Shown here: positions 1 through 31,803 of the stretch, piece by piece
Layout of the letters: each line of letters starts with the position of its first letter
How positions within the stretch are numbered: the stretch's first letter is position 1
Source: an uncultured Pirellulales bacterium
GTDB taxonomy: Bacteria > Planctomycetota > Phycisphaerae > Sedimentisphaerales > CAYZTY01
DNA length: 64,000 nt
Direction: 5' to 3'
Assembly: GCA_964444665.1 (NCBI GenBank)
Contig: CAYUIE010000008.1
Location: 17,163-81,162 of the forward strand
Made by a program: the position numbers and the translations under genes
The notes under the pieces: model-generated
What the model saw: only the letters and a program-made list of their open reading frames with translations
Database searches by the model: none
What the model was told of the DNA's origin: nothing

Positions 1-638
1 TTGAGTATCAATTAGACAGAATCAACCAGATACAGATAACTCCGGAGGTCGGTGAAACATTCGCAGGAGTATTGCGTTCGATACTCAGACAGGACCCGGA
101 CATAATAATGTTAGGCGAAATAAGAGATATAGAGACCGCCGAGATTGCGGTGCAAGCTGCTCTGACCGGCCATCTCGTCTTAAGTACGCTGCATACAAAC
201 GACGCACCAACGGCCGTCACCAGATTAAGAGAGCTCGGGATTCCTTCATTTCTCATCACTTCGTGCGTTGTGATGGCGGGAGCACAAAGATTAGTTAGAA
301 AGATCTGCCCGGACTGCAAAGAATCCTATCAACCCGACGAAGAAACGCTGAAATTACTGGGGATTGATAAGCCCTTAGCAAAAGGATTTATTCACGGTAA
401 AGGCTGCAACTATTGTTACGGGACGGGCTATCGCGGCAGAGAAGGCGTTTACGAGATTCTCAAAATAGACAACGATATTCAAAATGCAATACTGGCGGAA
501 AAAAGCTCGCTGGAAATAAAAAGGATAGCTGCAGAAAAAGGAATGAAAACGCTGCTGGATTCTGCATTGTTGAAGATATCACAAGGTACAACTACTGTTG
601 AGGAAGTAAGACGAGTAATAGCTCCGGAGAGATTCTAA
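1..638 (+). CDS. gspE: GspE/PilB-family secretion ATPase, C-terminal part (5' end outside window)
   Basis: Frame is open from the window edge to TAA at 636-638. Motifs: [27 protein letters not shown] (His box), tetracysteine CPDC...CNYC. Stop overlaps the next start (TAATG). Confidence 0.9.
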
Positions 639-1843
639 TGAGCCAATTTCAATATACAGCTCATGCAGTTGATGACGGCAAGGTGTTTAAGAGTACCTGT
701 GATGCTGAAAATGAGGGCGTATTACGCTCGGACCTTAAGAGAATGGGCTATACAGTCGATGAAGTCAGGCTGCAAAAAAACAAACAAATCTTCGGACAGC
801 GCAAGAGAGTAAAGTTAATAGACCTTGTAAATATGTGTCGAAGGTTCTCTGTAATGTATGCAGCGGGTCTGCCTTTGATGGACTGCTTAGTTTCGCTGTC
901 GCAGGAAAATGAAAGCAAAAAACTCTCGGATTCTCTGGACGATATACGTAGGCAAATCGAGCATGGCAGCAATGTTGCAGAGGCTTTTTCCACACACCCA
1001 AAAATGTTCTCTCCATTTTTTGTCAACCTGTTACAGGCCGGAGAGGCTGCAGGCAAGTTTGACTATGTGCTCAAGCAATTGGCAGTATATATGGAAAAAG
1101 AATACGACCTGAGAAGAAAAATACGACAAGCTTTCGCTTATCCAATGATAGTTTTAATTATGATTCTCTTTGTTATTATAATGATAATGATAGTTGTTGT
1201 GCCGGCATTTTCCAAAGTTTATTTAAAAATAGGCATAACGCTGCCGGGACCAACAATTGCACTTATCTACATCAGCAATAATATAATTTACATTTTCCCA
1301 TCAACAATCGCTTTAGCTGTCGGGCTGTGGTTTCTGTACAAAAGGCTTAAGACAATACCTTCAATTAAAACCAGGCTGGATAGATGGAAATTATCAATGG
1401 CAATGGTAGGGAAAGCCTACCACAAAATTGTAATGCTTAAGTTTATTCGCACGTTCAGCATTACGATTGCAGCCGGTCAGCAGGTATCCGATGCCTTGGT
1501 AATCGCAAGAGACGTTGCAAATAATGCTGTTGTCTCGGAAGCTTCCGTTATGATTCAACGTAATATAAAACGTGGTGGCACAATTACCGATGCAATTAAA
1601 CTGCATGACTTTTTCCCACAATCTATCGTACATACGTTTTCAATAGGAGAAAAGGCCGGCAAGCTGGATGAAGTATTAGGCAAATTTGCTATCGGAATTG
1701 AACAGGATGTTGATGACGAAATAAGAAAACTTATTACAAAAATAGAACCGTTACTAATGGTAGTATTGAGCCTTGTTGTAGGCTTTGTTTTGTTAGCTAT
1801 TTATTTACCAATTTTCGATTTAGTCAAAATGGTTCACAAATAA
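638..1843 (+). CDS. gspF: Type II secretion / type IV pilus platform protein (GspF/PilC family)
   Basis: 401 aa with duplicated T2SF-like halves and hydrophobic segments (AYPMIVLIMILFVIIMIMIVVVPAF; EPLLMVVLSLVVGFVLLAIYLPIF). Translationally coupled to gspE. Confidence 0.9.
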   Translation: MSQFQYTAHAVDDGKVFKSTCDAENEGVLRSDLKRMGYTVDEVRLQKNKQIFGQRKRVKLIDLVNMCRRFSVMYAAGLPLMDCLVSLSQENESKKLSDSLDDIRRQIEHGSNVAEAFSTHPKMFSPFFVNLLQAGEAAGKFDYVLKQLAVYMEKEYDLRRKIRQAFAYPMIVLIMILFVIIMIMIVVVPAFSKVYLKIGITLPGPTIALIYISNNIIYIFPSTIALAVGLWFLYKRLKTIPSIKTRLDRWKLSMAMVGKAYHKIVMLKFIRTFSITIAAGQQVSDALVIARDVANNAVVSEASVMIQRNIKRGGTITDAIKLHDFFPQSIVHTFSIGEKAGKLDEVLGKFAIGIEQDVDDEIRKLITKIEPLLMVVLSLVVGFVLLAIYLPIFDLVKMVHK

Positions 1844-1924
1844 CTTGGACTTATGTGTCCGGCAGGTAGCCTGCTCTGCCGGATTGCATGATTGAACAGG
1901 CAGGTACTTTGAAAGGGGTAAAAG

Positions 1925-2266
1925 ATGACGGCTAAAAAAGGTTTTACTTTAATTGAGCTGCTCCTGGTGGTTGCTATCCTGGCAGTTCTGGCGGCAATTG
2001 TAGTCCCAAGACTGGCTGCCTCCTCCAGCGAAGCGAAAAAGTCCGCGTGCACCGCCGCCTGGGCTAATTTGGTAAGAGCCCTCGAACTTTATGCGGTAGA
2101 CAACGATGGAGAATACCCAACGAACCAAACGACGTTTGATTCTCTTATTCTCAACAGCAGTACGTACTTTCCGCATGGTACGCCGAGCTGCCCGGTCGAC
2201 GGTAGCGCGTATGTGTATGTTAATACCGCAGGTGCAGAGACAGTAACTCCGCATAGTCACCCATAG
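1925..2266 (+). CDS. gspG: Major pseudopilin, GspG-like (prepilin-type N-terminal methylation motif)
   Basis: KKGFTLIELLLVVAILAVLAAIVVP prepilin signal, plus ALELYAVDNDGEYPT, which resembles the GspG core motif. 113 aa. Confidence 0.8.
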   Translation: MTAKKGFTLIELLLVVAILAVLAAIVVPRLAASSSEAKKSACTAAWANLVRALELYAVDNDGEYPTNQTTFDSLILNSSTYFPHGTPSCPVDGSAYVYVNTAGAETVTPHSHP

Positions 2267-2299
2267 TATAGTTAGTTAAAGCAGAAAAGTGGCAAAAAA

Positions 2300-2761
2300 A
2301 TGAAGCGAGGACCTGACTCTATCAAGACAGGTTTTACGCTGATAGAACTTGTCCTGGTTGTGGCGTTGATAGCTATACTTGTAAGTATAGCTATCCCACG
2401 TGTTGGTTGGGGGACAATGGGGAAGGTTCAGGTTGAGAGCACTGCTCAGCAGTTTTCCGGCTACCTGAAGCTTGCCCGGTCGCTCGCCATAACGCACGCC
2501 AGCAGCAACGGCGAGGGCTATGAAGTTGTTCTGACATCGTCACAACCATATAACTACTCGCTCATTAACTCCGATACCCTGGAGGTGATAAAAGGCCCGA
2601 TAGCATTGCCTGAAGGCCTCAGCTATAGCGGAGATAGCACATATGAATTCACACCATTAGGAAATCTGTCAGGTAGTCAAGTATTATCAGTACAATTTTC
2701 AAAGTCGGGCTATACCTCGGGTATTACGGTCACGCCGGTCGGAAGGATAACGATTCAATGA
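2300..2761 (+). CDS. Minor pseudopilin (GspH-like by position)
   Basis: KTGFTLIELVLVVALIAILVSIAIP prepilin motif. 153 aa. Second pilin gene in the operon. Confidence 0.65.
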   Translation: MKRGPDSIKTGFTLIELVLVVALIAILVSIAIPRVGWGTMGKVQVESTAQQFSGYLKLARSLAITHASSNGEGYEVVLTSSQPYNYSLINSDTLEVIKGPIALPEGLSYSGDSTYEFTPLGNLSGSQVLSVQFSKSGYTSGITVTPVGRITIQ

Positions 2762-2762
2762 A

Positions 2763-3152
2763 ATGAAAAGACGAAAGAAAAAAGGTTTTACTTTTATCGA
2801 GGTTCTGGCATCAGTGCTGATATTGGCCGGGGCCACTGTTCCTATCATAACCTATGCTGCCGACAGTCTGTCTACGAGCGTAGAGATAGAGCGTAGGATA
2901 AAGTCAACTCTGCTGGCAGAAGGCGAGATGGAAAAGATAAAAAACGTGCTGAGAAAATCGTTCGGTACGGACTTTACCGCCTGGCCAAGCAGTCTTGGAA
3001 ACAATTACTATGCCATCAGAACATCGACAGACGTAGAACCAACGCTGAAGATTATCGAAGTTTCTGTTGGCTACGACGTCAATAGGAACGGTTCGCTTGG
3101 AACAGACGAAATTATGATTACTTTGAAAACACAATATGCCCAAAGAAGCTGA
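2763..3152 (+). CDS. Minor pseudopilin (GspI-like by position)
   Basis: KKGFTFIEVLASVLILAG prepilin-like N-terminus. 129 aa. Third pilin gene. Confidence 0.55.
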   Translation: MKRRKKKGFTFIEVLASVLILAGATVPIITYAADSLSTSVEIERRIKSTLLAEGEMEKIKNVLRKSFGTDFTAWPSSLGNNYYAIRTSTDVEPTLKIIEVSVGYDVNRNGSLGTDEIMITLKTQYAQRS

Positions 3153-5394
3153 TAGACACGTTAAAAACTACAGAGCCTTCACATTAGTTGAGGTGATACT
3201 GGTGGTCGGCACGATAGCCCTGGTTGCAGGTACGTTGGTCGGACTGGTTATCAACAGCTATGAAGACTTCAAGCTGGGCAGCAGTCGTTCAACTTTACTA
3301 CAGGACGGCCAGTCAGCTATAGGGCAGATGGTTCGCATTCTTCGTCAGGTCATTGCCTTTAGCTCCGTAAGCGAGTCAACCGACCAGGCCGGCTACATTA
3401 CATTTACAAACATTGATGGAACCGTCGAAGAGTTCAGACTCAACACAGGAACCAGCGAACTCGAATATGGCGAGCCGGGCTCCCTAAGTGCCTTAACCGG
3501 CTCGGTAAGCAGCCTTTTTTTAACATGCTACGATATAGACGGAAATGTCCTGACAGGACCCGTCTCGGCCGGCAACGTTCAGTCGGTACAAATTGAGATG
3601 ACGCTTAACGACGGCGATAACAGCTTCACCCTCTTTGGCAGAGTCTGTTGTCCGACGGATCTTTCGAGCCTTATAGCCTGGTGGAAGCTGGATGAAACTT
3701 CCGGATTAACCGCAGCAGACAGTAGTGGCAACGACAACCACGGTACTTTACGAAATATGGCAGGTGATGAATGGACAAGCGGGGCAATGGGCGGTGCGCT
3801 GAATTTTGATGGCAACAACGACTACGTGGCCATTCAAAATCTATACTACGATGGTAGCGATTACCCGGAAATCAGCGTTACCGCCTGGATCCGCACCAGC
3901 GACGGTACCAACCAAATAATCGTTTCCTACGACCGCAATGAATACTGGCGGCTGGAGATCAACGGAAATGGTGGCGGCACAGGTCAGGTAGGCTGGGATG
4001 TACGTACCAGTAGCGGCCAGGTGGATTACGGCAGCACCACCCGTGTCGATGATGGCGCTTGGCATCATGTGGCAGGTGTATTTGATAACGGCACACTGAC
4101 CATCTACATCGATGGTAATCCGGAATCCCCGGATTCCGGGGGCAGCACCTTCGGAAGAGGAGTAAACACGCGATACGGTTTTCTGGGAGTAGGTTCGGAA
4201 GCAACTACTTTTGACGGCAATAAAGGTCCAACCAGTTACTTTGACGGCGATATGGACGATGTGCGCATCTATAACCGCGCACTGAGCGTACAAGAGATAT
4301 CACAGTTGGCCAATATCCTTAGATACCGGGAGTTTACCGAGGCCAAGACCGGTTCCAACGTTACCTCTATTACCATTTCAACGCCTACCACAAATGAGGG
4401 TGACTTACTTATCGCCGCTGTTGCCACCGATGGCGATACTTCCTCCTCGCTGGCCCCACCTGGTGGTGAAGGCTGGACTGAAATAGACGCAGGCGATTAT
4501 AACAATGAGGTTACGCTGGGTGCCTGGTGGAAACTCGCAGATGCCTCTGAGTCAGCCAGCCATCAGTTTACCTGGTCGGGCGGTCAACATGCATACGGCT
4601 GGATAATGCGGTTTACAGGCCATGATCCAAGCGACCCTATTAACGACTACTCGACCAGCGGAGAACCAAGCAGCACGCCAACCAGCCCGGCGGTAACCAC
4701 TACGGTCAGCAACTGTATGATTCTCCGACTGGGTGCGTTTGATGACGATGATATTACTGAAGATGACCCCGGACTTCCCGGTCATACGGCAATCACGATG
4801 GACAAAACCACCGCTGCGATGTTTCAGGACGGATTCGAGACAAGTTTCGACCTGTGGACCGACGGCGGAACCACAGACTGGGACAGGACATTCAGCCAGC
4901 AACACTTAGGCAGCTATTCAGCACATGCCGGCTGGTGGAATACTCAATTGACGTCCGACAATATTGACACAAGTTCTTACAGCTCTTTCACAATCGATTT
5001 CTGGTATATGGATGACGACATCGATAACAATGACGATGTTTTTCTCCAGCTTTATGATGGTGGTTCATACAACGACAGATTTGAGCTTAACATGGCACCG
5101 TCTGAGGAGGATATATGGCACAACCATAACGAAACTGTTAACGATAGCGGCGGTGATGCGCAGTACTTCAGGAACAACTTCCGCATCAGATTCGAGGCCA
5201 CCGACATCAATAACTGGCGTGAAAATCTATGGATAGACGACGTAACAGTGACCGTTGTCGGTGGTGGTACGGTCTCCGGCGGAGCCGGATACGTCAGGCA
5301 GTCCGCCATTGGTGACAGTGGCACATCTACCTTCACGCTTGGCTCATCGAACGAGGCGCGGACACTTACGATAGCAATAGCGCCGGCACCTTAA
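3136..5394 (+). CDS. Giant pseudopilin: prepilin-like N-terminus (GspJ-like by position) + LamG/concanavalin-A-like lectin domain + further beta-rich modules
   Basis: N-terminus YRAFTLVEVILVVGTIALVAG. LamG_3-type motifs at aa ~176-392 (LIAWWKLDETSG...GNDNHGTL...ALNFDGNNDYV...WHHVAGVFDNGTLTIYIDG...YFDGDMDDVRIYNRALS). C-terminal jelly-roll-like segment FQDGFETSFDLWTDGG...WIDDVTV. Confidence 0.75.
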   Translation: MPKEADRHVKNYRAFTLVEVILVVGTIALVAGTLVGLVINSYEDFKLGSSRSTLLQDGQSAIGQMVRILRQVIAFSSVSESTDQAGYITFTNIDGTVEEFRLNTGTSELEYGEPGSLSALTGSVSSLFLTCYDIDGNVLTGPVSAGNVQSVQIEMTLNDGDNSFTLFGRVCCPTDLSSLIAWWKLDETSGLTAADSSGNDNHGTLRNMAGDEWTSGAMGGALNFDGNNDYVAIQNLYYDGSDYPEISVTAWIRTSDGTNQIIVSYDRNEYWRLEINGNGGGTGQVGWDVRTSSGQVDYGSTTRVDDGAWHHVAGVFDNGTLTIYIDGNPESPDSGGSTFGRGVNTRYGFLGVGSEATTFDGNKGPTSYFDGDMDDVRIYNRALSVQEISQLANILRYREFTEAKTGSNVTSITISTPTTNEGDLLIAAVATDGDTSSSLAPPGGEGWTEIDAGDYNNEVTLGAWWKLADASESASHQFTWSGGQHAYGWIMRFTGHDPSDPINDYSTSGEPSSTPTSPAVTTTVSNCMILRLGAFDDDDITEDDPGLPGHTAITMDKTTAAMFQDGFETSFDLWTDGGTTDWDRTFSQQHLGSYSAHAGWWNTQLTSDNIDTSSYSSFTIDFWYMDDDIDNNDDVFLQLYDGGSYNDRFELNMAPSEEDIWHNHNETVNDSGGDAQYFRNNFRIRFEATDINNWRENLWIDDVTVTVVGGGTVSGGAGYVRQSAIGDSGTSTFTLGSSNEARTLTIAIAPAP

Positions 5395-5864
5395 ACATCT
5401 TAGAGAAGATAACGCCACCATATAAGCAGTCATATCGATTGAAATAAATTCAAAAATACTAAAATCGCAAATTCAAAACAATCTCAAATGACCAAAATTC
5501 AAACCTCCAAAACAGTCAAACTTATAGGACGCGTGCAAAAAAGTTTCTTTCCGTGGTAGTATGTTTTATTAACTCCGATAAAAGCTAAGTTTTCCTCGGT
5601 CGGCACTGAATTTGTCTTTCGGCTTTGCGGTATATGAATAAGACCCGAAGGATTCGACTTTTTCCGTAACAAGTTCCTTATTTCTGACGATACGATTAGT
5701 GTCTCGGAGTGTCTCTGAAACTGTATCAGTAGAGGATGAACAGTCCGATTAAATCCCGGGATATTGGATGTATATAAGTTTAACTGAAAAAAACCGGCTT
5801 AGCTATGTTAATAAGTGTCTCCTCAGCATCGGTGCTATTGGCCTTAAGTACAGGCCTTTCCTGA

Positions 5865-6296
5865 ATGAATAAAGAAATTAAAAAAACAAAGAAAAACAAG
5901 GATGGTTTTGTTCTTGTATTAACGGCTTTTGCCACAATGATGATGGCAACACTTATTATAGCCTTTTTAAATATGACTTACATAGATTTGCTTCTGGTCA
6001 AAAACCATATGTGCAGCACAAAAGCCTATTACATTGCGGAGGCCGGAGTTGCTGATGCGATAAACGAGATGCGACTTAACGGCCCGCTATCAGATACGCA
6101 ATGGGAAGAGTTTTTCCCTTCAGGTTCGTCGGACAAATATACAGTCGCTGTATCACAAAGCTCGACTATTATAAATTCGACCGGCCTTGAAGCCAATGCT
6201 AATTTCAGCAGAATACTGGAAGTAACGGTAAGTTTGAGCGGAAGCTCCTCGCCTTACAATGTATCGATTAATCAATGGAAGGAAATAACCCAGTGA
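5865..6296 (+). CDS. PilX/GspK-like minor pseudopilin
   Basis: Basic N-terminus then hydrophobic helix DGFVLVLTAFATMMMATLIIAF, followed by YYIAEAGVADAINE (PilX_N-like). 143 aa. Position matches GspK. Confidence 0.5.
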   Translation: MNKEIKKTKKNKDGFVLVLTAFATMMMATLIIAFLNMTYIDLLLVKNHMCSTKAYYIAEAGVADAINEMRLNGPLSDTQWEEFFPSGSSDKYTVAVSQSSTIINSTGLEANANFSRILEVTVSLSGSSSPYNVSINQWKEITQ

Positions 6297-7801
6297 ATCC
6301 TGATAAAGCTATCCTGGGGATACATATTGACGGCGATTGCTTAAATATCGTTCATCTGGGGCACACCGCCGGAGGTGTGGAGTTACTAAACTGGATGAGC
6401 GAGCCTTTACAGGACGGCATTGTAAACGACGGTTTGATTATCGATGTACAAGCCGTATCGCAAAAAATCCGAGACTTTGTCCAAATCAACCAAATAAAAA
6501 CTCGTAAAACAATTATATCGCTGCCGTGTTCGCCTGTGAGATTAAAGCCCTGTGAATTTCCTACGCAAACATACAAAAAACTACAGGAACAGGTCGAAGA
6601 GCAAATCGGAAAGTATTCTTTGTTTGGCGGCCGGGAGGTTATATTCGATTATTGCATATTCGAGGGAAAAATCCGGTCTTCCAATAAGCAGACGGTGCTG
6701 CAGGCAATTACATCCAGAGAAATAAGCGATGCTTATCTGACAATTGCCAACAGTGCCGGCCTTAAATTAGTGGGAATCGAGCCTGCGGTGTTAGCAATTA
6801 TAAAATTGTCTTTTAACAAAAAAGCTGCAGATTCTCAGGCTGTTTCTTTGCTGTTGGTTCTGGACTCGGTCTCGGCTAACCTAAGCGTGTTCAATAAAGG
6901 CCTGCCCCAGTTTTGTCAAAATTTGAACATAAGCATAAAAGATTTATCACAGGACAAAAACAGCTTTTCCAATCTAACCGAACAGATGAAATCCGTCCTG
7001 AACTTTGCGCGCTCGCTTGACGAGACACAGCAACCAACATTTATAGTCGCAGCCGCCTGCAACGGCGAAATGGTGGACAAAATTGTCAGCCAAATAAAAA
7101 ATAGTTTAAGCGACGTGACCTTTAAGTTAACAGACCAATGCCATATCACACAACAATTCAGCATTCAAGGCACGGACGAGCAGGAAGTCCCTTTATTTGC
7201 ATTTGCTTCGGCTTTAACGGCTTTAGGTGTTTGTGAATATGATGGACAGCTAAATCTCGTATCACAGCAGTCAATCAACATTTATAAAACAAAGAAAGAG
7301 ATATCCTTCACTGCGAAAATCATTATAGCGCTGTTTCTGCTGTCTATTGTTATCCTGGTCCCGCTGAAGAGTAAAATTAAAAGCGCTGAAGCCGAATTAA
7401 TCGAGATGGCTAAAAAATTTACTGAAACAATTCCGACGAGGGATAAAATCTCTAACTCAAAAAAACAGATGGGGCAAGTGAACATCAAATTGTCGGCTTA
7501 TATTGCAGCCGACAAGAAACTAACAAATCTCCCGTGGCCGAAAGTCCTGTCGGTCATAGGTGACAAAGTGCCAAGCGGAGTAAGGATAGCTGAAATTTCA
7601 ACTACTGATACCGGTGATTTTATGCTGTTCGGAAAAGCACTGGCTGAGAATTATGTTCATAAGTTTGTGAAAAAACTGCAAAACGAAGAGCTTGTTGAAT
7701 ACGCAGAAGTGGAAGAAATCGAATATGACGAAAACCGCGGCTCAGTTATTGTTGATTATAAAATTACCTGCCATATCAAATTACCTGAAGGCAATTTATG
7801 A
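6275..7801 (+). CDS. PilM-like (actin-fold) assembly protein fused to a PilN-like TM/periplasmic domain (GspL analogue)
   Basis: N-terminus ILGIHIDGDCLNIVHL (PilM-type start), a single TM (AKIIIALFLLSIVILVPL) at about aa 345, and a C-terminal PilN-like segment (VPSGVRIAEISTTDTGDFMLFGKA). Confidence 0.65.
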   Translation: MEGNNPVNPDKAILGIHIDGDCLNIVHLGHTAGGVELLNWMSEPLQDGIVNDGLIIDVQAVSQKIRDFVQINQIKTRKTIISLPCSPVRLKPCEFPTQTYKKLQEQVEEQIGKYSLFGGREVIFDYCIFEGKIRSSNKQTVLQAITSREISDAYLTIANSAGLKLVGIEPAVLAIIKLSFNKKAADSQAVSLLLVLDSVSANLSVFNKGLPQFCQNLNISIKDLSQDKNSFSNLTEQMKSVLNFARSLDETQQPTFIVAAACNGEMVDKIVSQIKNSLSDVTFKLTDQCHITQQFSIQGTDEQEVPLFAFASALTALGVCEYDGQLNLVSQQSINIYKTKKEISFTAKIIIALFLLSIVILVPLKSKIKSAEAELIEMAKKFTETIPTRDKISNSKKQMGQVNIKLSAYIAADKKLTNLPWPKVLSVIGDKVPSGVRIAEISTTDTGDFMLFGKALAENYVHKFVKKLQNEELVEYAEVEEIEYDENRGSVIVDYKITCHIKLPEGNL

Positions 7802-8409
7802 TTACAGAGAAGTTAACAAAACTCGATGACTCCAAGAGGAAGACAATTGCCGTTTTAGTGCTGCTGGCCGTGGCAGGCACTTGTTACTTTACAATAACAA
7901 GAGGCTCTATCGTGAAATTGCAGGCAGCTAAAGCAAATTATACCGGTCTCCATGCAGTGTACACCGAGACCGAGTATCAACAATCTAATTTTTCAAATTT
8001 ACAAAATAAACTCGAAGAAAAACAAAAACAGCTCGAAAAACACCAGCAGCTCAGCTTTAGCAACGAACAGGCCTCGCAGCTTTTCGAAAATATAAACTCT
8101 ATGGCATCGGCACATAAATTAAGACCAATATCCAAAACAGTTTCCGAACCCATAGAACTCAGTGATAAAAAAACCATACCTGAACAGCCCGAGACAGAAC
8201 ATCAATTTTTGAAAACACAATCGGCAACAATAGCTGTTTGCGGCGATTATTTCAATATGGTTGATTTCGTGAACGAACTTGCCAACCGTACGCAAAAAAT
8301 TTATATGACGAATTTTCATATAGATATAGCACGGGGAGAAAATTTTTACCCGAAAGCATCATTCGAAATAACCTTATTAATAGATTCGTCTAAAGGATAC
8401 GAAAAATGA
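7798..8409 (+). CDS. PilO/GspM-like assembly protein
   Basis: N-terminal TM (IAVLVLLAVAGTCYF), coiled-coil segment, and C-terminus ATIAVCGDYFNMVDFVNELANRTQKIYMTNFHI typical of PilO/GspM. ATGA overlap with the upstream gene. Confidence 0.55.
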   Translation: MITEKLTKLDDSKRKTIAVLVLLAVAGTCYFTITRGSIVKLQAAKANYTGLHAVYTETEYQQSNFSNLQNKLEEKQKQLEKHQQLSFSNEQASQLFENINSMASAHKLRPISKTVSEPIELSDKKTIPEQPETEHQFLKTQSATIAVCGDYFNMVDFVNELANRTQKIYMTNFHIDIARGENFYPKASFEITLLIDSSKGYEK

Positions 8410-9578
8410 TACGAGTGCATATGATAATGGTAGTGACTCTGGGAGTAATTATTGCGGCGGGAATTTGCTCAGGTCAGGAACCACCGAATAAGACGAACCC
8501 ATTCGGCCCATTAGACGAAGCGACAGCCTTTAATCCAGCTAAAACCGCCGACAATCTTCCAGCTATGTACGATATAGAAGAACCAATTAGCACCGAGATA
8601 TTCAAATTAAACTTTGCTAATGCTAAAAATTTGGAAGAGACCGTCAAAAACCTCGTATCCAATGACGGAAGAGTAGGAATTGATGAAAGGCTTAACTGCA
8701 TTGTTGTCTGCGATACGGAATCGGACTTAGAGCAAATCAGCGAAGCGATAGAGAGGCTGGATGTTAAAGCACCTCAGGTTATGATTGAGGCCCTGATAGT
8801 CAATGTGAAACTTACAGAAGAGCTGAAAATGGGTGTCGACTGGACTAAACTGGGCACATTAAATAATTACCTTTCCCAGGAGTTTAATATCACAGGCAGT
8901 ACAAATCCATACGGCAAGGTGATAATCTCAAAGACTAAAGACGAATGGAATTTCCAAGGACTGATAGACTTTGTTGAAACCAACAAAGACGTCAGAATCC
9001 TGGCAAATCCCAAGGTGCTGGTAATGAACAATCACAGGGCAATTATCAACTCTATCGAAGAAATACCATACCGCGAACTCAGTGAAACATCCGAAGGGGG
9101 CGCTATCGGCACAGTAGCTTTTAAAGAGGCTGGTATCAAACTGGAGGTAACTCCCCAGATCACCGATGACGGCCACATTATCATGCATATTAAACCTGAA
9201 CAGAGTGCCCAGATTGGAACATTCACGATTGAAAACAGCGAGACGCCGATTATTGAAACACGAAGAACCGACACAACTTTATGCGTTAAAAACGGCCAGA
9301 CGATTATCATAAGCGGCCTTCGTAAAAGCGAACCGTCCATAGTTGAAAACAAAATACCGATTCTCGGCGATATCCCGCTTATAGGCTTGCTGTTCAGGAA
9401 AGTAGATACTGACTATATAGAAAGCGAGCTCGGAGTGTTTATAACACCGCATATTTATACCGATGGCAAACTATCTCCCGAAGAGTTGAAACTAATTGAG
9501 CAAAGCAAAGAAAAAAAATCTCTTTATGAAAACAGCGATTTATTAAGATTACAGCCGAATGATGATATAAATCGCTGA
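8406..9578 (+). CDS. Minimal secretin (GspD/PilQ family), one Secretin_N-like domain + secretin domain
   Basis: Signal peptide; N-domain IFKLNFANAKNLEETVKNL...CIVVCDTESDLEQISEAIERLD; secretin core VMIEALIVNV...GVDW, NPKVLVMNNHRAIINS, IPILGDIPLIGLLFRK. Only 390 aa. Confidence 0.85.
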   Translation: MIRVHMIMVVTLGVIIAAGICSGQEPPNKTNPFGPLDEATAFNPAKTADNLPAMYDIEEPISTEIFKLNFANAKNLEETVKNLVSNDGRVGIDERLNCIVVCDTESDLEQISEAIERLDVKAPQVMIEALIVNVKLTEELKMGVDWTKLGTLNNYLSQEFNITGSTNPYGKVIISKTKDEWNFQGLIDFVETNKDVRILANPKVLVMNNHRAIINSIEEIPYRELSETSEGGAIGTVAFKEAGIKLEVTPQITDDGHIIMHIKPEQSAQIGTFTIENSETPIIETRRTDTTLCVKNGQTIIISGLRKSEPSIVENKIPILGDIPLIGLLFRKVDTDYIESELGVFITPHIYTDGKLSPEELKLIEQSKEKKSLYENSDLLRLQPNDDINR

Positions 9579-9595
9579 TCTTTAGGAAACATATT

Positions 9596-10003
9596 ATGTT
9601 AACCAATATATTTGAGAAGAAAACAAAGACGAAAAAAATATTATTAACCGACGACGAACCGGATATAATCGCGGTCGTAAGCGCAGTTCTTAAATACAAC
9701 GGATACAACGTCATAACTGCCGGCGACGGCTTCCAATGTCTTGAAAAAGCAGAAAGCGAACAACCGGACCTTATTCTCCTTGATAAGAAAATGCCGAATA
9801 TGGACGGACAAACAACTTTGTTACAATTACAGGCTTCGAAGAAAACAAGTCATATTCCAGTTATAATGTTAACGAGCTGTACGGATGGCGAAGATATTGA
9901 ACTTGCGCAAAAAGGCGGTGCTGCTGAGTATGTCGCCAAGCCGTTCGACCGCTCTGTATTACTTGAAAAAGTCGCTCGAGTGCTGAAATCCAAACCCAAA
10001 TAA
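9596..10003 (+). CDS. Single-domain response regulator (REC)
   Basis: KILLTDDEPD...DLILLDKKMPNMDG...PVIMLT...YVAKPF receiver motifs. Confidence 0.85.
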   Translation: MLTNIFEKKTKTKKILLTDDEPDIIAVVSAVLKYNGYNVITAGDGFQCLEKAESEQPDLILLDKKMPNMDGQTTLLQLQASKKTSHIPVIMLTSCTDGEDIELAQKGGAAEYVAKPFDRSVLLEKVARVLKSKPK

Positions 10004-10056: not shown

Positions 10057-11184
10057 ATGGGCCAAGAATTAATAACAATCCTACATGCAGAAGATGATGA
10101 AATTGACCGCCGATTAGTAAAACGGATTTTGTCCGAGAAACAGCAGGCCCTCGAATTCGACCTCGAACAGGTAGACAATGTTTCAACGGCCATCGAATGC
10201 CTGAGGAATAACGAATATGATATCGCGTTGCTTGACCTGGGACTTCCCGATGCCAACGGCATCGAGTCAATCCAAATGGTCAAGCAAATCAATGCAGACA
10301 TACCTATCGTAGTATTAACCGGAGCCACAGACAAAGACAGGGGAATCGAGGCGATAAAAAATGGAGCGACGGATTACCTCTCCAAGGACATCGCATTAAA
10401 AGAGTTATTAGTCCGGACAATCCTCTATGCATTAGAACGCAAAAAAGCAGAGAAAAAAATCAAAGAGGCCGTAGAAACAAAATCAGAATTCCTATCTATG
10501 GTTTCACATGAATTGCGCACTCCTTTGACAGCTATGAAAGAAAGCGTTTCCATTGTCCTGGATGGATTAGCAGGACAAATAAGTAATGACCAGAAAGAAT
10601 GTCTGGACATCGCAAAGAGAAACATAGACAGGCTTGCCAGACTTATCAGTGATGTTTTGGACTTTCAAAAGCTTGAGTACGACAAGATGAAATTCAATAT
10701 GCAGCTTGAAAATATAAACGATGTTGTCGAGCACGTTTATAAGACGATGTCCTGTCATGCAAAAGAGAAGGGATTGGATTTTATCCTTGAACTTGATGAT
10801 AACTTACCAAAAGTAAAGATAGACGAGGACAGAATTACCCAGGTTTTAACAAATCTCGCCAATAACGCATTAAAGTTTACAGAAAAAGGGAGTATTAAAA
10901 TTAAAACAAGCAAGGGAGAAAATATTGTGCAGGTTCAGGTGGTTGACACCGGCTGTGGAATTAAACCAGAGGATATGTCAAAACTATTTCGGAAGTTTGA
11001 ACAATTGGCAACCGGCGGCGAAAGAAAAACGGGCGGAACGGGACTGGGACTTGCTATTAGTAAAGAAATAATCGAGCATCATGGAGGAAAAATCTGGATA
11101 GAATCAGAATCGGGTAAAGGATCGAACTTTAAATTTGTGCTGCCTATTGTAGAGAGACGAAAAATATGTCGAAAAGAATCTTAA
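10057..11184 (+). CDS. Hybrid REC-histidine kinase with no recognisable sensor or TM domain
   Basis: N-terminal REC ([10 protein letters not shown]...[11 protein letters not shown]...VVLTG), HisKA H-box [14 protein letters not shown], HATPase_c N/G boxes ([12 protein letters not shown]; VDTGCGI; [14 protein letters not shown]). Confidence 0.85.
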
Positions 11185-12572: not shown

Positions 12573-15500
12573 ATGTTCTTAGGGAGGCAAACGGTGAGCG
12601 AAAAGAACCTCTTACCGAAACGGACAACCATTAAAAGTAAAAGCATTTTAATGGCACTATTATTTTCTATCGGCATCTTGTCAGTAACTGCCAATCTGGT
12701 TATGGCTCGGGACGAGGCACCAGAAAAGCAAAAAGTCCTGGCGGAAACAAGTCGACAGTTTATCGAAGTAGGTAAAGAACAACTGCGACGGAATTACCAC
12801 AAGGCTGCGGAGCAATCCTTTATCCGGGCCCGGCAGTACGAGCGGTATCTGAGTGAGGCCGAACGTCAAAACCTCAAGGAACTGCTGGAAACAACTCTGA
12901 CCGCCCAGAATGAGAGGGATAAGGTCCAGGCAGATATCACAACCGCAGGCGAGCTCATTGCAAAAAAACAATTCTTAAAAGCAAAGGCACACCTCGAAAA
13001 AGCGAGCGACAGTCAAGTTCTTACGAAATTCGAACGCGAGCAACTGGAAGCATACATACAGGAGCTTGATACCCAGATAAACGTAGAGCAAAAACGAATG
13101 ACCGAGCTTTATGAAGAAAGCATTCGGCTTTATCAGCAGGGCGAGCTGCAAAAGGCTCAAGAGGGATTTATGCAGGTTGCCCGCAGCGGTATACAAATAG
13201 CACCAACCGAACTGCCTGTAGAAGATTATCTGGCCAAAATAAAATTTGAAGCCGCACTGGGCAAGGCACCTGAGAAACAGTTGACTTCGGAAAAAATCTC
13301 TAAGCCTACAGCAGAACCCCCCAAAGTCGAACCTGACCTTGCCGCTGAGGATCAACTGCTTGATGAAATGTCTGAAAAGGAAGTAAAAGCCGAGATACAG
13401 GAGCCGGCCACCGAACCCCAAGAGCCGAGTGTTGCCGCACCGGAGGCAACCGAAGTCAAGGGCGGATACATCGACCTTGTGCTTCGTAAGAAGCGAATTC
13501 AGCAAAGCTATACACGCGTATTCGTCGATGATGCTATCGACAAGGCCAACAAATTCATCAAAAATGAGAATTTTTCCAAGGCAAAAGAAGCAGTCAACAA
13601 CGCTCTTAGACACGTCAACAAAAACAGGTTATTGCTGGGAGATGAGCTGTTTAAGCAATACCATAACAGCCTGACACAACTGACCACGGAAATAATTCAA
13701 AAAGAACTTAATTTCGAACAGGAAAAAGAGAAAAAACGGCTTCAAAAGGCTCAAGAACTTCAGGAGTCGCTACGAGCACAGCAGCTGGCCGACAGAAAGC
13801 AAAAAGTCAAAAATTTAATGAGAAATGCGAAGAGTTTTCAAAAGGAACTGCGATATGAAGAAGCCCTCGGCCAGATAGAAATGCTGCTTGCGATAGACCC
13901 GTTAAACAACGATGCGTTATTAAAGAAGCTATTGCTGAAAGATGTCATAAGCTTACGCGAACAGCTCAAAGTGCAAAAGGAAACCGACGAGCAGGAGCTT
14001 AAGGTCCTGTTGGAGACCGACAAAGCCGCAATTCCATATGCTGACGAGATAGTCTTTCCAAGGAACTGGCGGGAGCTAACCAAGAAACGCGAAGCACAGG
14101 AAATGGTTGGAATCAGACCAGCAGATGCTATTGTCTATAAACAACTCTTAGAGGTCGTTGACCTCTCGGCGTTGACTCCAGATATGACTTTCGGAGAGGC
14201 CATCGATGTAATACGTAACTCGGTAGAGCCACCATTAAAGCTGTTCCCGAATTGGAAGGATTTAGAGGAAAACGCCTATATAGACCAGGGCACACCCATT
14301 GATATGCAAGGCGAGGTCGGGATGCCTCTCGGCAAAGCACTCGAGCTGCTGCTTGATTTGGTTTCGGGCGGCCTGACGGAAATTGATTACCTCGTGGAGG
14401 ACGGCATAATCACAATTGCCACCCAGGAATCTCTACCCGGCAAAACAGTGATACGCATATACGACATCACAGACCTGCTTGGTGTACCCGCCAATTTTGT
14501 CTTCGATACGGTTATTGAGGAAGACAGCTTTGTCACAAGTGCCGATTCTGATGAGCTGCTTAGTGAAGAAGAGGCAATCGAGCGAGCCGAGATTATAGTT
14601 GAGCTTATTCAGCAGACAGTCGAACCGGACAGCTGGTTTGAGGCGGGCGGAGAAGGCAGCATAAGCATTTACGGCACTCGGCTTGTTGTCACACAAGTAC
14701 CCGAAATCCAGGAAAAAGTCACTAATCTAATCAAAGATTTACGAAAGTCCTTGGGCCAGCAAGTGGCAATTGAGGCCAGGTTCCTGGTGGTAGACGAGAA
14801 TTTTCTTGAGGATATCGGCTTCGACGCCGATTTGAATTTCAAGACCTTCGGCGGCGACCTGACAATACAGGGCTTTGGATATGGCTACAACTTCACCCAG
14901 CCGAGACCGACAAGAGTGCCCGGCTCCATTCCCCCGACTGAAACCGGGGTGATGGATATTCCGATACTGCCGGCCTTCCAGGGCGCCGGCCATATCAAGT
15001 TCCTTGATAACTTACAGGTCGACTTTATACTGAGGGCGACCCAGGCGCACAAGAACGCCACGGCATTAACCGCACCAAAGGTTACTGTTTTAGACGGCGA
15101 ATCAGCCGCCCTGCGAGTACAAAGAGAAACACAATATATACAGAACGTGGATGTGGAAGTTGACAGTGAGACTGATGCGACCACTGGTCTTACGACCGTT
15201 ACAGAAGTAACTGTTGACAGAGATATAGAAGTTCTGGTTACAGGCGTAGTCCTCAATGTTACGCCGACCATAAGCGTAGACAAAAAGTACGTTCTATTAC
15301 GCATCTCCACTTTCACCAGAGAACTGCAGCAATTTGCCACGTATGACGCGGTTCAAGTGATTGCCGGCCAAGAGTTTACGGCACCCTTCTTTTTGCCTGA
15401 AACCGAGATAGCTGAAATCAGAACCAGGGTGATGGTACCTGACGGAGGAACCGTACTGCTTGGCGGCCAAAAATTGAGCGCAGAAGTGGAAAAAGAAAGC

Positions 15501-15653
15501 GGTATCCCGGTTATAAGCAAAATCCCCATTCTTGGCAGGTTCTTTACAAACCGCAGCAAAGTCAAGGACCAGAGAATCCTGCTGATACTGGTTACTCCTA
15601 CGATTATTCTGCAGGATGAGGCCGAGGCCGAGGCGATTGCCGCGATGGAATGA
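12573..15653 (+). CDS. Large secretin-family outer-membrane protein with ~650-700 aa helical/coiled-coil N-terminal region
   Basis: TM/signal segment ILMALLFSIGILSVTANLVMA; long K/E/Q-rich helical region. C-terminal secretin core QVAIEARFLVVDENFLEDIGFD, TAPKVTVLDGESAALRV, IPVISKIPILGRFFTNRSKVKDQRILLILVTPTII. Confidence 0.8.
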   Translation: MFLGRQTVSEKNLLPKRTTIKSKSILMALLFSIGILSVTANLVMARDEAPEKQKVLAETSRQFIEVGKEQLRRNYHKAAEQSFIRARQYERYLSEAERQNLKELLETTLTAQNERDKVQADITTAGELIAKKQFLKAKAHLEKASDSQVLTKFEREQLEAYIQELDTQINVEQKRMTELYEESIRLYQQGELQKAQEGFMQVARSGIQIAPTELPVEDYLAKIKFEAALGKAPEKQLTSEKISKPTAEPPKVEPDLAAEDQLLDEMSEKEVKAEIQEPATEPQEPSVAAPEATEVKGGYIDLVLRKKRIQQSYTRVFVDDAIDKANKFIKNENFSKAKEAVNNALRHVNKNRLLLGDELFKQYHNSLTQLTTEIIQKELNFEQEKEKKRLQKAQELQESLRAQQLADRKQKVKNLMRNAKSFQKELRYEEALGQIEMLLAIDPLNNDALLKKLLLKDVISLREQLKVQKETDEQELKVLLETDKAAIPYADEIVFPRNWRELTKKREAQEMVGIRPADAIVYKQLLEVVDLSALTPDMTFGEAIDVIRNSVEPPLKLFPNWKDLEENAYIDQGTPIDMQGEVGMPLGKALELLLDLVSGGLTEIDYLVEDGIITIATQESLPGKTVIRIYDITDLLGVPANFVFDTVIEEDSFVTSADSDELLSEEEAIERAEIIVELIQQTVEPDSWFEAGGEGSISIYGTRLVVTQVPEIQEKVTNLIKDLRKSLGQQVAIEARFLVVDENFLEDIGFDADLNFKTFGGDLTIQGFGYGYNFTQPRPTRVPGSIPPTETGVMDIPILPAFQGAGHIKFLDNLQVDFILRATQAHKNATALTAPKVTVLDGESAALRVQRETQYIQNVDVEVDSETDATTGLTTVTEVTVDRDIEVLVTGVVLNVTPTISVDKKYVLLRISTFTRELQQFATYDAVQVIAGQEFTAPFFLPETEIAEIRTRVMVPDGGTVLLGGQKLSAEVEKESGIPVISKIPILGRFFTNRSKVKDQRILLILVTPTIILQDEAEAEAIAAME

Positions 15654-19840: not shown

Positions 19841-22800
19841 ATGACTCGAACGGCTTTAGTAGCATTAATTGTGCTATTTGTGGCTTCAAGTGCGCTTACT
19901 GCACCCCTTGTGCGGTACGTTGACACCAGGGGAAAAGACGCAAGCGGGTATGGTTTATTTCCTGGAATATATGCCTTTAAGACCATTCAGTATGCAATCA
20001 ACCAAGTTGATGCCAATGACCCAAACTACGGGCAAGGCGTTACAATTTGGGTCGCCGACGGCATCTACGACAATAACCCAGCAAATAATGGGCATAATCG
20101 CAATATAAGCTTCCTCGGCCTTACACTTACTCTTCAAAGTGAAAACGGGCCTTTCAACTGTATCATCGACGCCAACGGCACACCATCAGACCCGGCCCAA
20201 GGCTTTATTTTTCAAAATGGTGAAGACGAAGAGGCAACCGTTAAGGGCTTCACCATAAAAAACGGATATACCGATACTGATGGCGGCGGAATGAGCTTCG
20301 ATGGTGCTTCGCCAACGATTATTAACTGTGTAATAGTTAATAACTATGCCTACTGGGGGGGCGGCGGGATAGCCTGCTTCAACAGCGGCGAACCGCAACT
20401 CATAAACTGCCTGATTGCTAACAACGTAAGTGACGACTATGCCGGAGGGATACTCTGTTTCGACTCCTCACCGACAATGGAACTATGTACTATTATAGGA
20501 AATATAGCATTATCTGAGGGCGGTGGCGTATACTGTGATAACGCAACGCCTGATATTCTCAACTGCATCCTGTGGGATAACTATATTGTGATAGGCACGT
20601 TTTTTATGCAAGATGACTTGGCAGGCGGTGATGCTGAGGCCACTTATTCATGTGTTGGTGTAGGTGATACAGGCGATGGCGGTATAAGTACTGACCCGCA
20701 ATTTATCACAGGACCCTTTGGCCCCTACTATCTGGATCAGCGACAAAGCCCCTGTGTAGACCACATACCCGTTCCCGAAGATAGAAAAAACATCAGAGCA
20801 TACGACGAATTTGAGCTGGGTAATGTAACCACAGGAGTCTGCAATGAAACCGACCGGCATGAGATAGATATGGGATTCCATTATCCCTTCAATTATGGTC
20901 CGGTCCTCTCTCATCAACTGATTATTAACGTCATTGGAAACGGGCATGTCCATGTCAACCCCGGAAATTGCGGAGACCCCAACTACACGGTATATATCAC
21001 TGATACCCACGTCCATAATGGCTGTTGTGAAATACAGCTAACCGCATTCCCCGACCCCAACCATCGTGTTTGGAAGTGGGTGGGTACAGATGACGATACG
21101 ACTCATAATTTAATCAACACAATTACACTCACCAGTGATACTACGGTGGACGTTTATTTTGAGCCGGACGAACCACACACGTACTTTGTCCCTTCAGATT
21201 ATCCGGGCAGTCTGCATCCGATTCAGGACGCCATTAACAATGCAAGGGATGGAGACATAATTACTCTTGCGCCGGATATTTACCGCGAGCAGGGAATTTA
21301 CCTCGAGAAAGCTATCACAATTAAAAGTGAAGCTCCCAGCGACCCGGCCATTGTGGCAAGTACTATTATCGCGCAGCCGGTCGGTGAAGAGGTTGGTCAC
21401 ACGAGGGGGATTACTATATATAACGTGGGTCACGATACTATCTTAGAAGGCCTGACGTTCTCAGGTTATACGTACAAAGTTGCGTCAATTTACCAGGAGG
21501 ATATGGAACCAGGTGAGAACGGTTACGATGGACCCCCCGGATATGGTGGTGGTATATATTTGGTGTTCGCCTCTCCGACCATCCGGTATTGCGTAATCAA
21601 GGATTGCGTTATTGAAGGAGCAAATGGGAACAATGGTGAAGGTGGTGACGAAAGTGTAACGAAAGGCGGGGACGGAGGCAATCCGGGTGAAATCCACGGC
21701 AGTGGAGTATATATGCGTTGGTTTTGCAGTCCGACCTTTGAAAACTGTACAATCAAGAACTGTACTGTTAGGGGTGGAAACGGGGGAAATGGAGGCGATG
21801 GCAATGGCTCCGACCCGTTTGGCGATGGAGGTATCGGCGGCGGATGGAATACGACAGATGCAGGATATGCCCAAGGAGCTGCTGCATATATTGGACTGTA
21901 CTGCTCGCCTACATTTAAGAGCTGCAAATTCAGCGACAATCTCGCCGAAGGCGGAACAACCGGCATCTCAGGATTCAGTGAACCCGTACACCGTAGACCC
22001 GAACCGGCAATGAATTATACTATGGACAAGTTCGGCGGAGCGGTTTTCTGTGCTACTGATTCTATATCCACGTTTATTAACTGTACCTTCAGCGATAATG
22101 TGGCCGACCCGTTCAGCGTGGAGGACAATGTTCAGCTTGATGTAAGTTATGGCGGTGCGGTATGTGTCTCAAACGGCGCAACAGCCATATTCGAAAAGTG
22201 CAGCTTCACTGGAAATGAGGCTACTTCCGGAGGGGCGGTATTCTGCATCTATTCGAATCCGACATTTATCAATTGTAATATGAAAAATAATTCGGCCTTT
22301 CAGGGCGGAGCCTTGTTCGCCGTGCATAGCAATGCTAATCTTCTGGGATGCAATATTGAAGATAACGAGGCACCGGGAGTTAGCGTAGAACAAGGGGAGG
22401 CTTTATCCGGACTTGGCGGCGGGATACTCTACCAGGCGACACCGACCTTGATTAATGACTGTACTATTATTAATAATTTTGCCGGTTTCTCCGGCGGCGG
22501 AGTTTACCTGACGGGAATAGAACATGCACCCACACCTATAGAGCTCAATAATTGCCTGATATTCGGAAATTCAGCCGGTCACAATGGCGGCGGCGTCTCG
22601 TGCAGCTGGGATTCCGAGGTGCAGATTAGAAACTGCACGATATATAACAACGACGCCATCAGCAGCGATTCCAATAACTATTCTTACGGCGGCGGGCTGG
22701 CCTGCGCATACAGAACTAATACTACCGTAACTGACAGCATCATCTGGGGAAATACCTGCCTCGACCCGAATGGTCTGGGCAAACAATTCTCGTTGGGTAG

Positions 22801-31155: not shown

Positions 31156-31631
31156 ATGAGTGGGTCGGGCGGTCGCTCCGCATTTATTGCGGGGAGGAAA
31201 GTCCGAGCAGGACAGGGCACGGTGGTGGCTAACGGCCACCTCCCGATATATCGGGACGGGAAAGTGCCACAGAAAATACACAGCCGATGGCCCGAAGCGT
31301 CCGGGCACAGGCAAAGGTGAAAAGGTGCGGTAAGAGCGCACCGCGGTGACGGTGACGTCGCCGGCAGGGTAAACCCCACCGCCTGCAAGACCAAATAGCT
31401 GGTTGCTCGGCCCGGGCACACGCCAGCGGGTAGGTCGCTTCCCGCTTCGTCGGGAGAGCCGGTCGGCAACGGCCGGTCAAGATAAATGGCCGCCATCTCG
31501 CACCTATTTTGAGAGTACAGTGAAAATCTTGATATTAGAGCTTTGATAAAATTTTAGCCTTATTCGCCAACTCGACGCTGGATTCTCAAAATAGGTGCGG
31601 GATACAGAACTCGGCTTACAGACCCACTCAT
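31156..31631 (+). ncRNA. rnpB: RNase P RNA, bacterial type A, with a large extra hairpin between P2(3') and P4(3')
   Basis: 11-bp P1 (ATGAGTGGGTC 31156-31166 / GACCCACTCAT 31621-31631), P4 strands GAGGAAAGTCCGAGC and ACAGAACTCGGCTTA, GGTAAGAGCGCACC and AGATAAATGGCCGCC consensus blocks. 476 nt. Confidence 0.93.
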
Positions 31632-31803
31632 TTTAATTGATAATTTATTATTTATTATTGATTATTAAGTATTAAGTTCTCTCAACAGCCATTGTTTCAA
31701 CATTTATTATTCCATCCTGGGAATACCTGTCGATAAATAAGTATGAGCCCTTATCTGTTAATAATTAGCCACAATGGAATAATAAAAGGTCTTTAAAAGC
31801 TTT

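Follow-up and report, generated by a model that had tools for sequence, protein, structure and literature searches.

How the rather uniform type IV filaments come to differ in what they bind is unsettled, and the answer given at present, modular pilins, has been studied mainly in one Gram-positive pathogen. Here, we describe a locus in a 64,000-nt stretch of DNA from an uncultured planctomycete (contig CAYUIE010000008.1, positions 17,163 to 81,162 of the forward strand; hereafter, the window). An open reading frame (ORF) at 3136..5394 on the plus strand starts with ATG and encodes 752 amino acids (aa) plus a stop codon, exactly at the coordinates and length given in the initial annotation. The product is probably a modular minor (pseudo)pilin of the GspJ class, and its large head contains a LamG domain and a conserved, unnamed domain that hosts a nested jelly-roll-like module. 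The following features were assigned to the gene.

3136..3243 (+): class III (prepilin-type) signal-peptide-like N-terminus, with a leader at aa 1-14 (MPKEADRHVKNYRA) and a hydrophobic stretch to about aa 36
3178..3651 (+): pilin module, aa 15 to about 172, with a long alpha1 helix plus beta-sheets (AlphaFold2, Foldseek)
3661..4326 (+): LamG/concanavalin-A-like (ConA-like) domain, aa about 176-397 (Pfam, PDB 4qvs)
4327..4803 (+): N part of the host domain, aa 398-556, REFTEAK...GHTAITMD (beta strands in AlphaFold2, family conservation)
4822..5256 (+): inserted jelly-roll-like module, aa 563-707, FQDGFE...WIDDVTVTV, MAM/CBM-like and rich in Asp, Asn, and Trp (AlphaFold2, Foldseek, relatives)
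5275..5391 (+): host-domain C part, aa 714-752, SGGAGY...TLTIAIAPAP (directly after the N part where relatives lack an insert)

Prepilin-type N-terminus and pilin module

The N-terminus (MPKEADRHVKNYRA|FTLVEVILVVGTIALVAG) consists of a short basic leader, the motif F-T-L-V-E including Glu5, and about 21 hydrophobic residues, and the putative prepilin cleavage site is A14|F15, with Glu at +5. Glu5 was invariant across a 44-sequence family alignment, the motif [GA]-[FLMV]-T-L-x-E was kept across the family, and position -1 was Ala in 80 and Gly in 40 of 120 distinct family members. The hallmarks of type IV pilin-like proteins (IPR012902/PF07963) were present, namely a hydrophilic leader, Gly or Ala at -1, a hydrophobic residue at +1, and Glu at +5. 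These results agree with the prepilin-like hydrophobic N-terminus proposed initially, though the Pfam N_methyl model stayed below its cut-off of 21.2 bits, with 16.0 bits for the full protein and 18.7 bits when the isolated N-terminus was the query. Several homologues passed this threshold.

The AlphaFold2 model of aa 1-180, based on 44 aligned sequences, had a predicted local distance difference test (pLDDT) score of 84.5 and showed a lollipop fold with a helix at residues 17-70 followed by seven strands, the beta-sheet ending near aa 171. In a Foldseek search against the PDB, all 10 significant matches of the pilin module were EpsJ, XcpW, or GspJ and none were anything else (probability 1.00, template modelling (TM) scores 0.46-0.61). 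They included EpsJ chains (3cfi and 2ret; E down to 3.7e-5, TM 0.54/0.60), GspJ (3ci0_J), and, from the XcpV-XcpW complex 5bw0, a chain whose length of 159 residues suggests XcpW, the GspJ homologue. The gene lies between I-like and K-like genes, and the same slot, E-F-G(-G)-H-I-[J]-K-PilMN-(O)-secretin-response regulator-histidine kinase, was found in about 45 planctomycete loci among those fetched, with record titles such as Sedimentisphaerales, Phycisphaerae, and 'Pirellulales'. The J products of these syntenic loci ranged from 421 to 1109 aa. Both the pilin-sized segment of about 170 aa and the GspJ position that had been read from the sequence at first are therefore borne out. In addition, the protein combines an N-terminal pilin module with non-pilin functional modules, which is the definition of a modular pilin (PMC8179133), and the head beyond the pilin anchor comprises 580 aa.

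Some results weigh against this assignment. The GspJ sequence models (TIGR01711 gspJ and Pfam T2SSJ) gave no match at E<=0.01; hence, GspJ membership holds by fold and gene position, not by sequence family. The subthreshold N_methyl score, the presence of Ala instead of the canonical Gly at -1, and the lack of a prepilin peptidase (peptidase A24) gene among the ORFs of at least 180 aa read in the window would also fit a protein that is no filament subunit, in which the pilin-like N-terminus serves as the uncleaved inner-membrane anchor of a periplasmic or cell-surface lectin-like protein. We consider such an anchor highly unlikely, given the invariant Glu5 in a motif kept family-wide, the specific GspJ fold, and the fixed slot between I-like and K-like genes in the syntenic operons.

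LamG domain

In Pfam, Laminin_G_3 (PF13385) matched aa 225-389 with E=6.7e-25 (88.4 bits against a gathering score of 27.6), and Laminin_G_2 matched in the LamG region with E=1e-5. Additionally, the LamG domain of an S-layer protein structure (4qvs) aligned to aa 181-394 (nt ~3676-4317) with E=8e-12. These matches coincide with the LamG domain that had been placed at nt ~3661-4311 by inspection. The ConA-like module of PilC from Streptococcus sanguinis is a lectin, and PilC is an adhesin (PMC9934059). By this family precedent, the LamG domain may bind carbohydrates.

Conserved host domain

The LamG domain is followed by a beta-rich domain of about 200 aa, referred to here as the host domain, which is divided by the insert into an N part and a C part. 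No match to it was found in Pfam, NCBIfam, or a profile search of PDB sequences (best PDB E=0.24, judged noise). Its identity to the window protein was 48-82% across related operons and 57-82% in syntenic planctomycete operons, making it the best conserved segment of the operon, exceeding GspE (45-56%). The initial annotation had recorded merely 'a further beta-rich domain' in this region; the domain is present, but its rank as the most conserved and family-defining element of the operon had been missed.

The whole-protein search found an identical protein (P0001) in NCBI/JGI/Logan and more than 970 homologues, most of them without a name; the label 'LamG-like jellyroll fold domain-containing protein' (in metagenome-assembled genomes (MAGs) of Planctomycetota/Phycisphaerae) or 'pseudopilin PulG' is attached to a few. 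With one representative genome per species, 106 stretches encoded the host domain. The host-domain profile also detected many proteins of 350-390 aa, and because those inspected consist of just a pilin-type N-terminal module and, directly after it, the host domain, these two modules form the family core. NCBI gives the name 'PulJ/GspJ family protein' to one of these widespread minimal proteins (~360 aa), found in Bythopirellula polymerisocia; further ones are called 'type II secretion system protein', FimT, or PilV. Among cultivable relatives, both Sedimentisphaera and Bythopirellula encode the minimal protein. LamG is optional, as in the 421-aa protein of L045, which has none. Furthermore, in MAGs labelled Gammaproteobacteria, proteins whose N-terminus resembles a pilin or GspK end in the host domain, which was also found in MAGs labelled Gemmatimonadota and Hydrogenedentes; bin contamination is possible for some of these cases. 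Taken together, the LamG domain and the insert are optional, exchangeable accessories, and it is the host domain that defines the family.

In 22 host-domain sequences from several phyla, residues D36, E85, Y100, R105, and H109 were invariant and K79, D149, and H163 were nearly invariant (A3 numbering). The conserved His, Asp, Glu, and Arg residues could point to another role, e.g., in catalysis or metal binding, which counts against the ligand-binding tip protein favoured below. The host domain would then be an enzyme or metal-binding module, with LamG and the insert as substrate-targeting carbohydrate-binding modules, and the filament would carry a catalytic tip (e.g., polysaccharide- or peptide-modifying). 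Conservation of 57-82%, above that of the ATPase, and the modular pilins with peptidase modules that have also been catalogued (PMC8179133) are in line with this idea. However, no enzyme family in Pfam, NCBIfam, or PDB sequences resembles the domain, the fold searches returned binding modules of the beta-sandwich type that are not catalytic, and large insertions are tolerated, so that a catalytic tip seems quite improbable.

Nested jelly-roll-like module and recursive insertion

The insert comprises 145 aa and is placed before the last ~40 residues of the host domain, between ...GHTAITMD and SGGAGY.... The AlphaFold2 model of aa 396-752 had an overall pLDDT of 76.9, and the insert was its most confident part (blocks of 68-94, mostly at least 81), modelled as all-beta with about 10 strands. 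In the host N part, beta strands were predicted with pLDDT 76-92 over model residues 11-100 (aa 406-495). The C part reached only 55-72, a point against the split domain, whose N and C parts would pack together in three dimensions, with two C-part strands completing it after the insert. Foldseek with aa 396-752 gave jelly-roll matches at E 1e-5 to 1e-3, namely CBM16 (TMt 0.62-0.65 over 142-155 aligned columns), tandem CBM22, reelin repeats, the Eph ligand-binding domain, and MAM-containing enteropeptidase, which were assigned to the insert by aligned length. Against viral models, the C-terminal half matched uncharacterised phage and tail-fibre-like proteins. The MAM sequence model matched the insert weakly (E=0.0047; 17.2 bits, below the cut-off of 26.4), and some homologues have precomputed MAM or CBM_4_9 matches.

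Comparison with relatives confirmed, at the level of aligned sequences, that the host domain nests the insert. In the insert-less proteins P0093 and P0113, ...GHTAITMD leads to SGGAGY...IAI(A/T)P within about 10 residues. At the same site, P0034 carries a second LamG (two Laminin_G_3 stretches, E=6e-54), P0096, P0070, and P0080 carry a YWTD propeller (Ldl_recept_b E=7e-35 in P0096), and other relatives carry an unknown 220-aa module or a DUF1349-like module. These relatives bear out the earlier suggestion of a module inserted within the preceding domain, and from the all-beta model and the Foldseek matches, this module is probably a jelly roll, as also suggested. In the commonest architecture among relatives, the insertion site holds a second copy of the host domain itself. 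Architectures were scored with hidden Markov models of both host parts in 204 proteins, the main types being as follows (P, pilin; L, LamG; hN and hC, host N and C parts; M, MAM-like insert).

P-L-hN-hN-hC-hC: 59 proteins
P-L-hN-M-hC (the type of the window protein): 20 proteins
P-L-hN-L-hC: 15 proteins
P-L-hN-(other)-hC: 10 proteins
...hN-L-hN-hN-hC-hC-hC: 7 proteins

When hN and hC were read as opening and closing brackets, 180 of 197 distinct proteins were balanced, with a depth of 1 in 93, 2 in 78, and 3 in 9 proteins, and a tandem element was seen in just 1 of the 197. The 17 unbalanced proteins are truncated, come from a split gene, or are proteins in which a 40-aa C part went undetected. 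Sequence signatures of the two parts also covaried. Single-host proteins combined either 'GAWWK' with a non-aromatic C part (n=53) or 'GVWWK' with a Y/W-R C part (n=13), and the order in double-host proteins was mostly A, V, YR, other (n=41, versus 6 with the N types reversed). This covariation supports a nested pairing, in which the outer N part would belong to the last C part. Separately, the J protein of L024 (1008 aa) contains an unknown 220-aa module at a second site of the host domain, between 'ISISTPGDS' and 'EGDLLIAAVATDG', and DUF1349-like modules twice.

Considering this insertion pattern, we tentatively propose, as a possibility short of an even chance, that the host domain serves type IV filament tips as a dedicated scaffold that tolerates insertions and displays them, in which LamG cassettes and inserts would provide plug-and-play specificity.

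Base composition and exchange of modules

The GC content of the gene was 0.516, compared with 0.439 upstream (nt 1-3135) and 0.406 downstream (nt 5395-9600). The local contrast is real because the gene lies 1.7 standard deviations (SD) above the mean of gene-length windows and its value is reached by just 1.9% of the 2,259-nt windows in the 64 kb. The hand counts of G+C made initially (33/60, 26/60, and 20/60) were exact, and the higher GC content than in neighbouring genes, claimed from them, survived this sliding-window analysis (top 2% of gene-length windows). GC as a sign of foreign origin was rejected. The GC content at third codon positions (GC3) was 0.555 and falls among the values of the window's housekeeping genes (rho 0.609, lpxA 0.575, lpxC-fabZ 0.551); low values (0.35-0.45) were those of the operon neighbours F, K, MN, O, the secretin, and the response regulator/histidine kinase pair. 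The excess resides largely at second codon positions (0.473 against a mean of 0.377, SD 0.048) and results from the amino-acid composition of the protein (G 11%, T 10%, S 10%, D 9%, K 1%).

The mosaic origin that the GC contrast had been taken to hint at is nevertheless real on other grounds, as the identities of the modules disagree with those of the operon. Across related operons, identities to the window were 45-56% for GspE (71% in L003), 25-37% for GspF (53% in L003), 19-25% for PilMN (40-43% in L003 and L020), and 26-36% for the secretin (60% in L020). In the closest operons, L003 and L020, the pilin module was 51-52% identical and GspE 71% where present, yet LamG was only 39% identical. 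In the distant operons L006, L009, L011, L012, and L035, the pilin module was 25-30% but LamG 78-82% identical, and in all operons sharing the high-identity LamG (78-83%), the pilin module was 23-30% and GspF 31-36% identical. Pilin types A and B were each found both with LamG type 1 (P0002 for A, P0004 for B) and with other LamG types (P0003 for A, P0027 for B), giving all four pairings, and in P0035 LamG type 1 is joined by another nested module. As judged from sequence comparison, these discordant identities are the pattern expected of cassette exchange.

A recent horizontal transfer of the LamG cassette was considered and rejected. The exchange would not be recent because synonymous-codon identity is only mildly raised, with 50-62% in the shared LamG versus 27-55% in other domains.

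Operon organization and machine type

The J gene is part of an operon with the following neighbours, in which the H, I, and K genes were assigned by weak matches and position.

72-638 (+): GspE/PilB ATPase, 3' part
638-1843 (+): GspF/PilC
1925-2266 (+): major pseudopilin, G-like
2300-2761 (+): H-like
2763-3152 (+): I-like
5865-6296 (+): pilin-like protein in the K position, 143 aa, without Glu5
6275-7801 (+): PilM-PilN fusion (GspL-like arrangement)
7798-8409 (+): PilO/GspM-like, weak GspM match
8406-9578 (+): secretin
9596-10003 (+): response regulator
10057-11184 (+): histidine kinase

The ATPase scored 568.8 bits as PilB and 563.0 bits as GspE, both below the cut-offs. The F protein scored higher as GspF (281 bits) than as PilC (248 bits), and the major subunit scored best as GspG. 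Neither GspC nor PilT was found among the ORFs of at least 180 aa in the window. The machine is best described as a type IV filament system resembling a type II secretion system (T2SS), with the subtype, a periplasmic pseudopilus or a surface pilus, undecided.

A true T2SS with a short periplasmic pseudopilus has to be weighed at this point. In such a system, the J head would recognise folded exoproteins (e.g., glycosylated or carbohydrate-binding-module-bearing enzymes) and push them into the secretin, or it would gate the secretin. A T2SS-like arrangement of the genes, E-F-G-H-I-J-K-L(=PilM-N fusion)-M(=PilO)-D, the lack of PilT among the ORFs of at least 180 aa, and the best scores of the F protein and the major subunit as GspF and GspG speak for it; in addition, the T2SS is described as a piston in which the tip complex is functionally essential (PMC6211770). 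On the other hand, the ATPase scores equally as PilB and GspE, GspC was not seen in the window, heavy cassette diversification is more typical of surface adhesins with variable external ligands, and the known lectin-bearing modular pilins are adhesins (PMC9934059). We therefore regard a periplasmic cargo-handling head as unlikely.

The spacer between J and K (5395-5864) is 470 nt long and AT-rich (500-nt windows with GC 0.37-0.44), compared with about 12 nt in most related operons. It contained no ORF of at least 60 aa, blastx and blastn found no relatives of it, and neither an Rfam match nor a promoter or terminator signal was detected. Variations in the J region were also seen elsewhere. In L036, the J gene is present as a neighbouring pair of paralogues (1185 and 1165 aa). 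In L004 and L063 (Hydrogenedentes MAGs), a 1292-1298-aa protein with a propeller, a LamG, and a host domain follows a separate 290-aa pilin-like gene; this protein of about 1290 aa directly precedes pilM, i.e., it occupies the fifth (K) position and not the J slot.

Proposed role at the filament tip

The minor pseudopilins I, J, and K prime and cap the filament (structures 3ci0 and 5bw0; PMC6211770), and modular pilins, including a surveyed set bearing PF13385, have been proposed to be exposed at the tip (Raynaud et al. 2021, PMC8179133). We favour, as the likelier interpretation, a J-class minor subunit of a T2SS-like type IV filament machine in a planctomycete of the Phycisphaerae/Sedimentisphaerales type, with a distal ligand-binding head. 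In this scheme, a prepilin peptidase would first cleave the protein, and the processed J subunit would join the I-like and the small K-like subunits in a priming complex at the filament tip. The J head would form the distal cap because the K-like partner has only 143 aa, and its two lectin-type modules would face the ligands, which are most likely glycans. Exchange of either the LamG or the nested module would alter the specificity and leave the assembly interface untouched. By analogy with the GspI-J-K tip complex, S. sanguinis PilC, and the surveyed modular pilins, a role as a glycan-binding tip adhesin is plausible. Two points stand on the other side of this scheme: the tip of the canonical T2SS is capped by the K subunit, not J, and ligand binding by LamG or the insert is putative.

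Comparison with known systems

The protein shares with GspJ/EpsJ/XcpW (3ci0, 2ret, 3cfi, and 5bw0) the predicted fold of aa 15-172, the slot among the I-J-K genes, and a prepilin-type N-terminus with Glu5, but it differs in length (752 aa versus ~190 aa) and in the lack of a match to gspJ sequence models. Known J subunits have no C-terminal modules, and the canonical bulky extra domain is found in K, not in J. As in S. sanguinis PilC (pilin, Ig-like, and ConA-like lectin modules) and PF13385 modular pilins, a small pilin module is fused to ConA/LamG lectin modules, and tip presentation with an I-like partner is proposed as for the modular pilins described previously (PMC8179133, PMC9934059). 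Unlike these, the present protein belongs to a diderm planctomycete with a T2SS-like operon, has a J-class pilin module, and carries an extra conserved, unnamed scaffold domain with nested and even recursive insertions.

A large multi-module head tied to the minor-pilin priming complex is also a feature of PilY1/PilC of type IVa pili, and some relatives of the 752-aa protein carry a beta-propeller (YWTD type) as PilY1/PilC do. However, PilY1 is a separate non-pilin protein docked on minor pilins, whereas the head is fused to the J subunit here, and the PilY1 domain (IPR008707) was not detected. Extra tip-exposed domains on or in a minor pilin are likewise known from the alpha-domain insertion of GspK, CofB of enterotoxigenic Escherichia coli, and Thermus ComZ (PMC8179133); these have other folds and belong to other subunit classes, and none has been reported with a repeated insertion-host domain.

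LamG (PF13385) on pilins is among the most frequent modular-pilin architectures catalogued (PMC8179133). A modular LamG pilin is thus of a known kind, because PF13385 pilins have already been catalogued and the exact protein is in public databases. Our literature searches found no description of a J-class modular carrier in a planctomycete T2SS-like operon, nor of the host domain or of single-loop insertion with recursive self-nesting and cassette exchange.

Other features of the window

Several further features were observed in the window. A second, stand-alone secretin gene at 12573-15653 (+) encodes 1026 aa, with the Secretin domain at aa 823-1012, a best model of the MshL type, and a long N-terminal region that appears coiled-coil-rich by eye. 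A 1479-aa right-handed beta-helix protein (19841-24280, +) adjoins an S8 subtilase with a C-terminal dockerin (24352-26226, -), and it is possible that both are secreted or surface proteins. The valyl-tRNA synthetase gene at 33929-37765 (-) encodes 1277 aa and contains an in-frame IS200-like transposase domain (Pfam Y1_Tnp, aa 326-414; 32.6 bits against a cut-off of 23) within the catalytic region. Bacterial RNase P RNA class A (31157-31634, +; 257.7 bits) was the sole Rfam match in the window.

Implications for the family

The locus extends the modular-pilin principle to environmental planctomycetes and to the J subunit of a T2SS-like machine, leaving the broad picture of pilus biology unchanged. 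It adds a scaffold domain that is more conserved than the motor ATPase and a defined loop that hosts interchangeable binding modules, some of them recursively nested. If the proposed reading is true, these proteins would represent a tractable family for domain insertion and cassette exchange at the filament tip, and the host domain would be a new domain family to define as well as a candidate natural scaffold for displaying folded domains.

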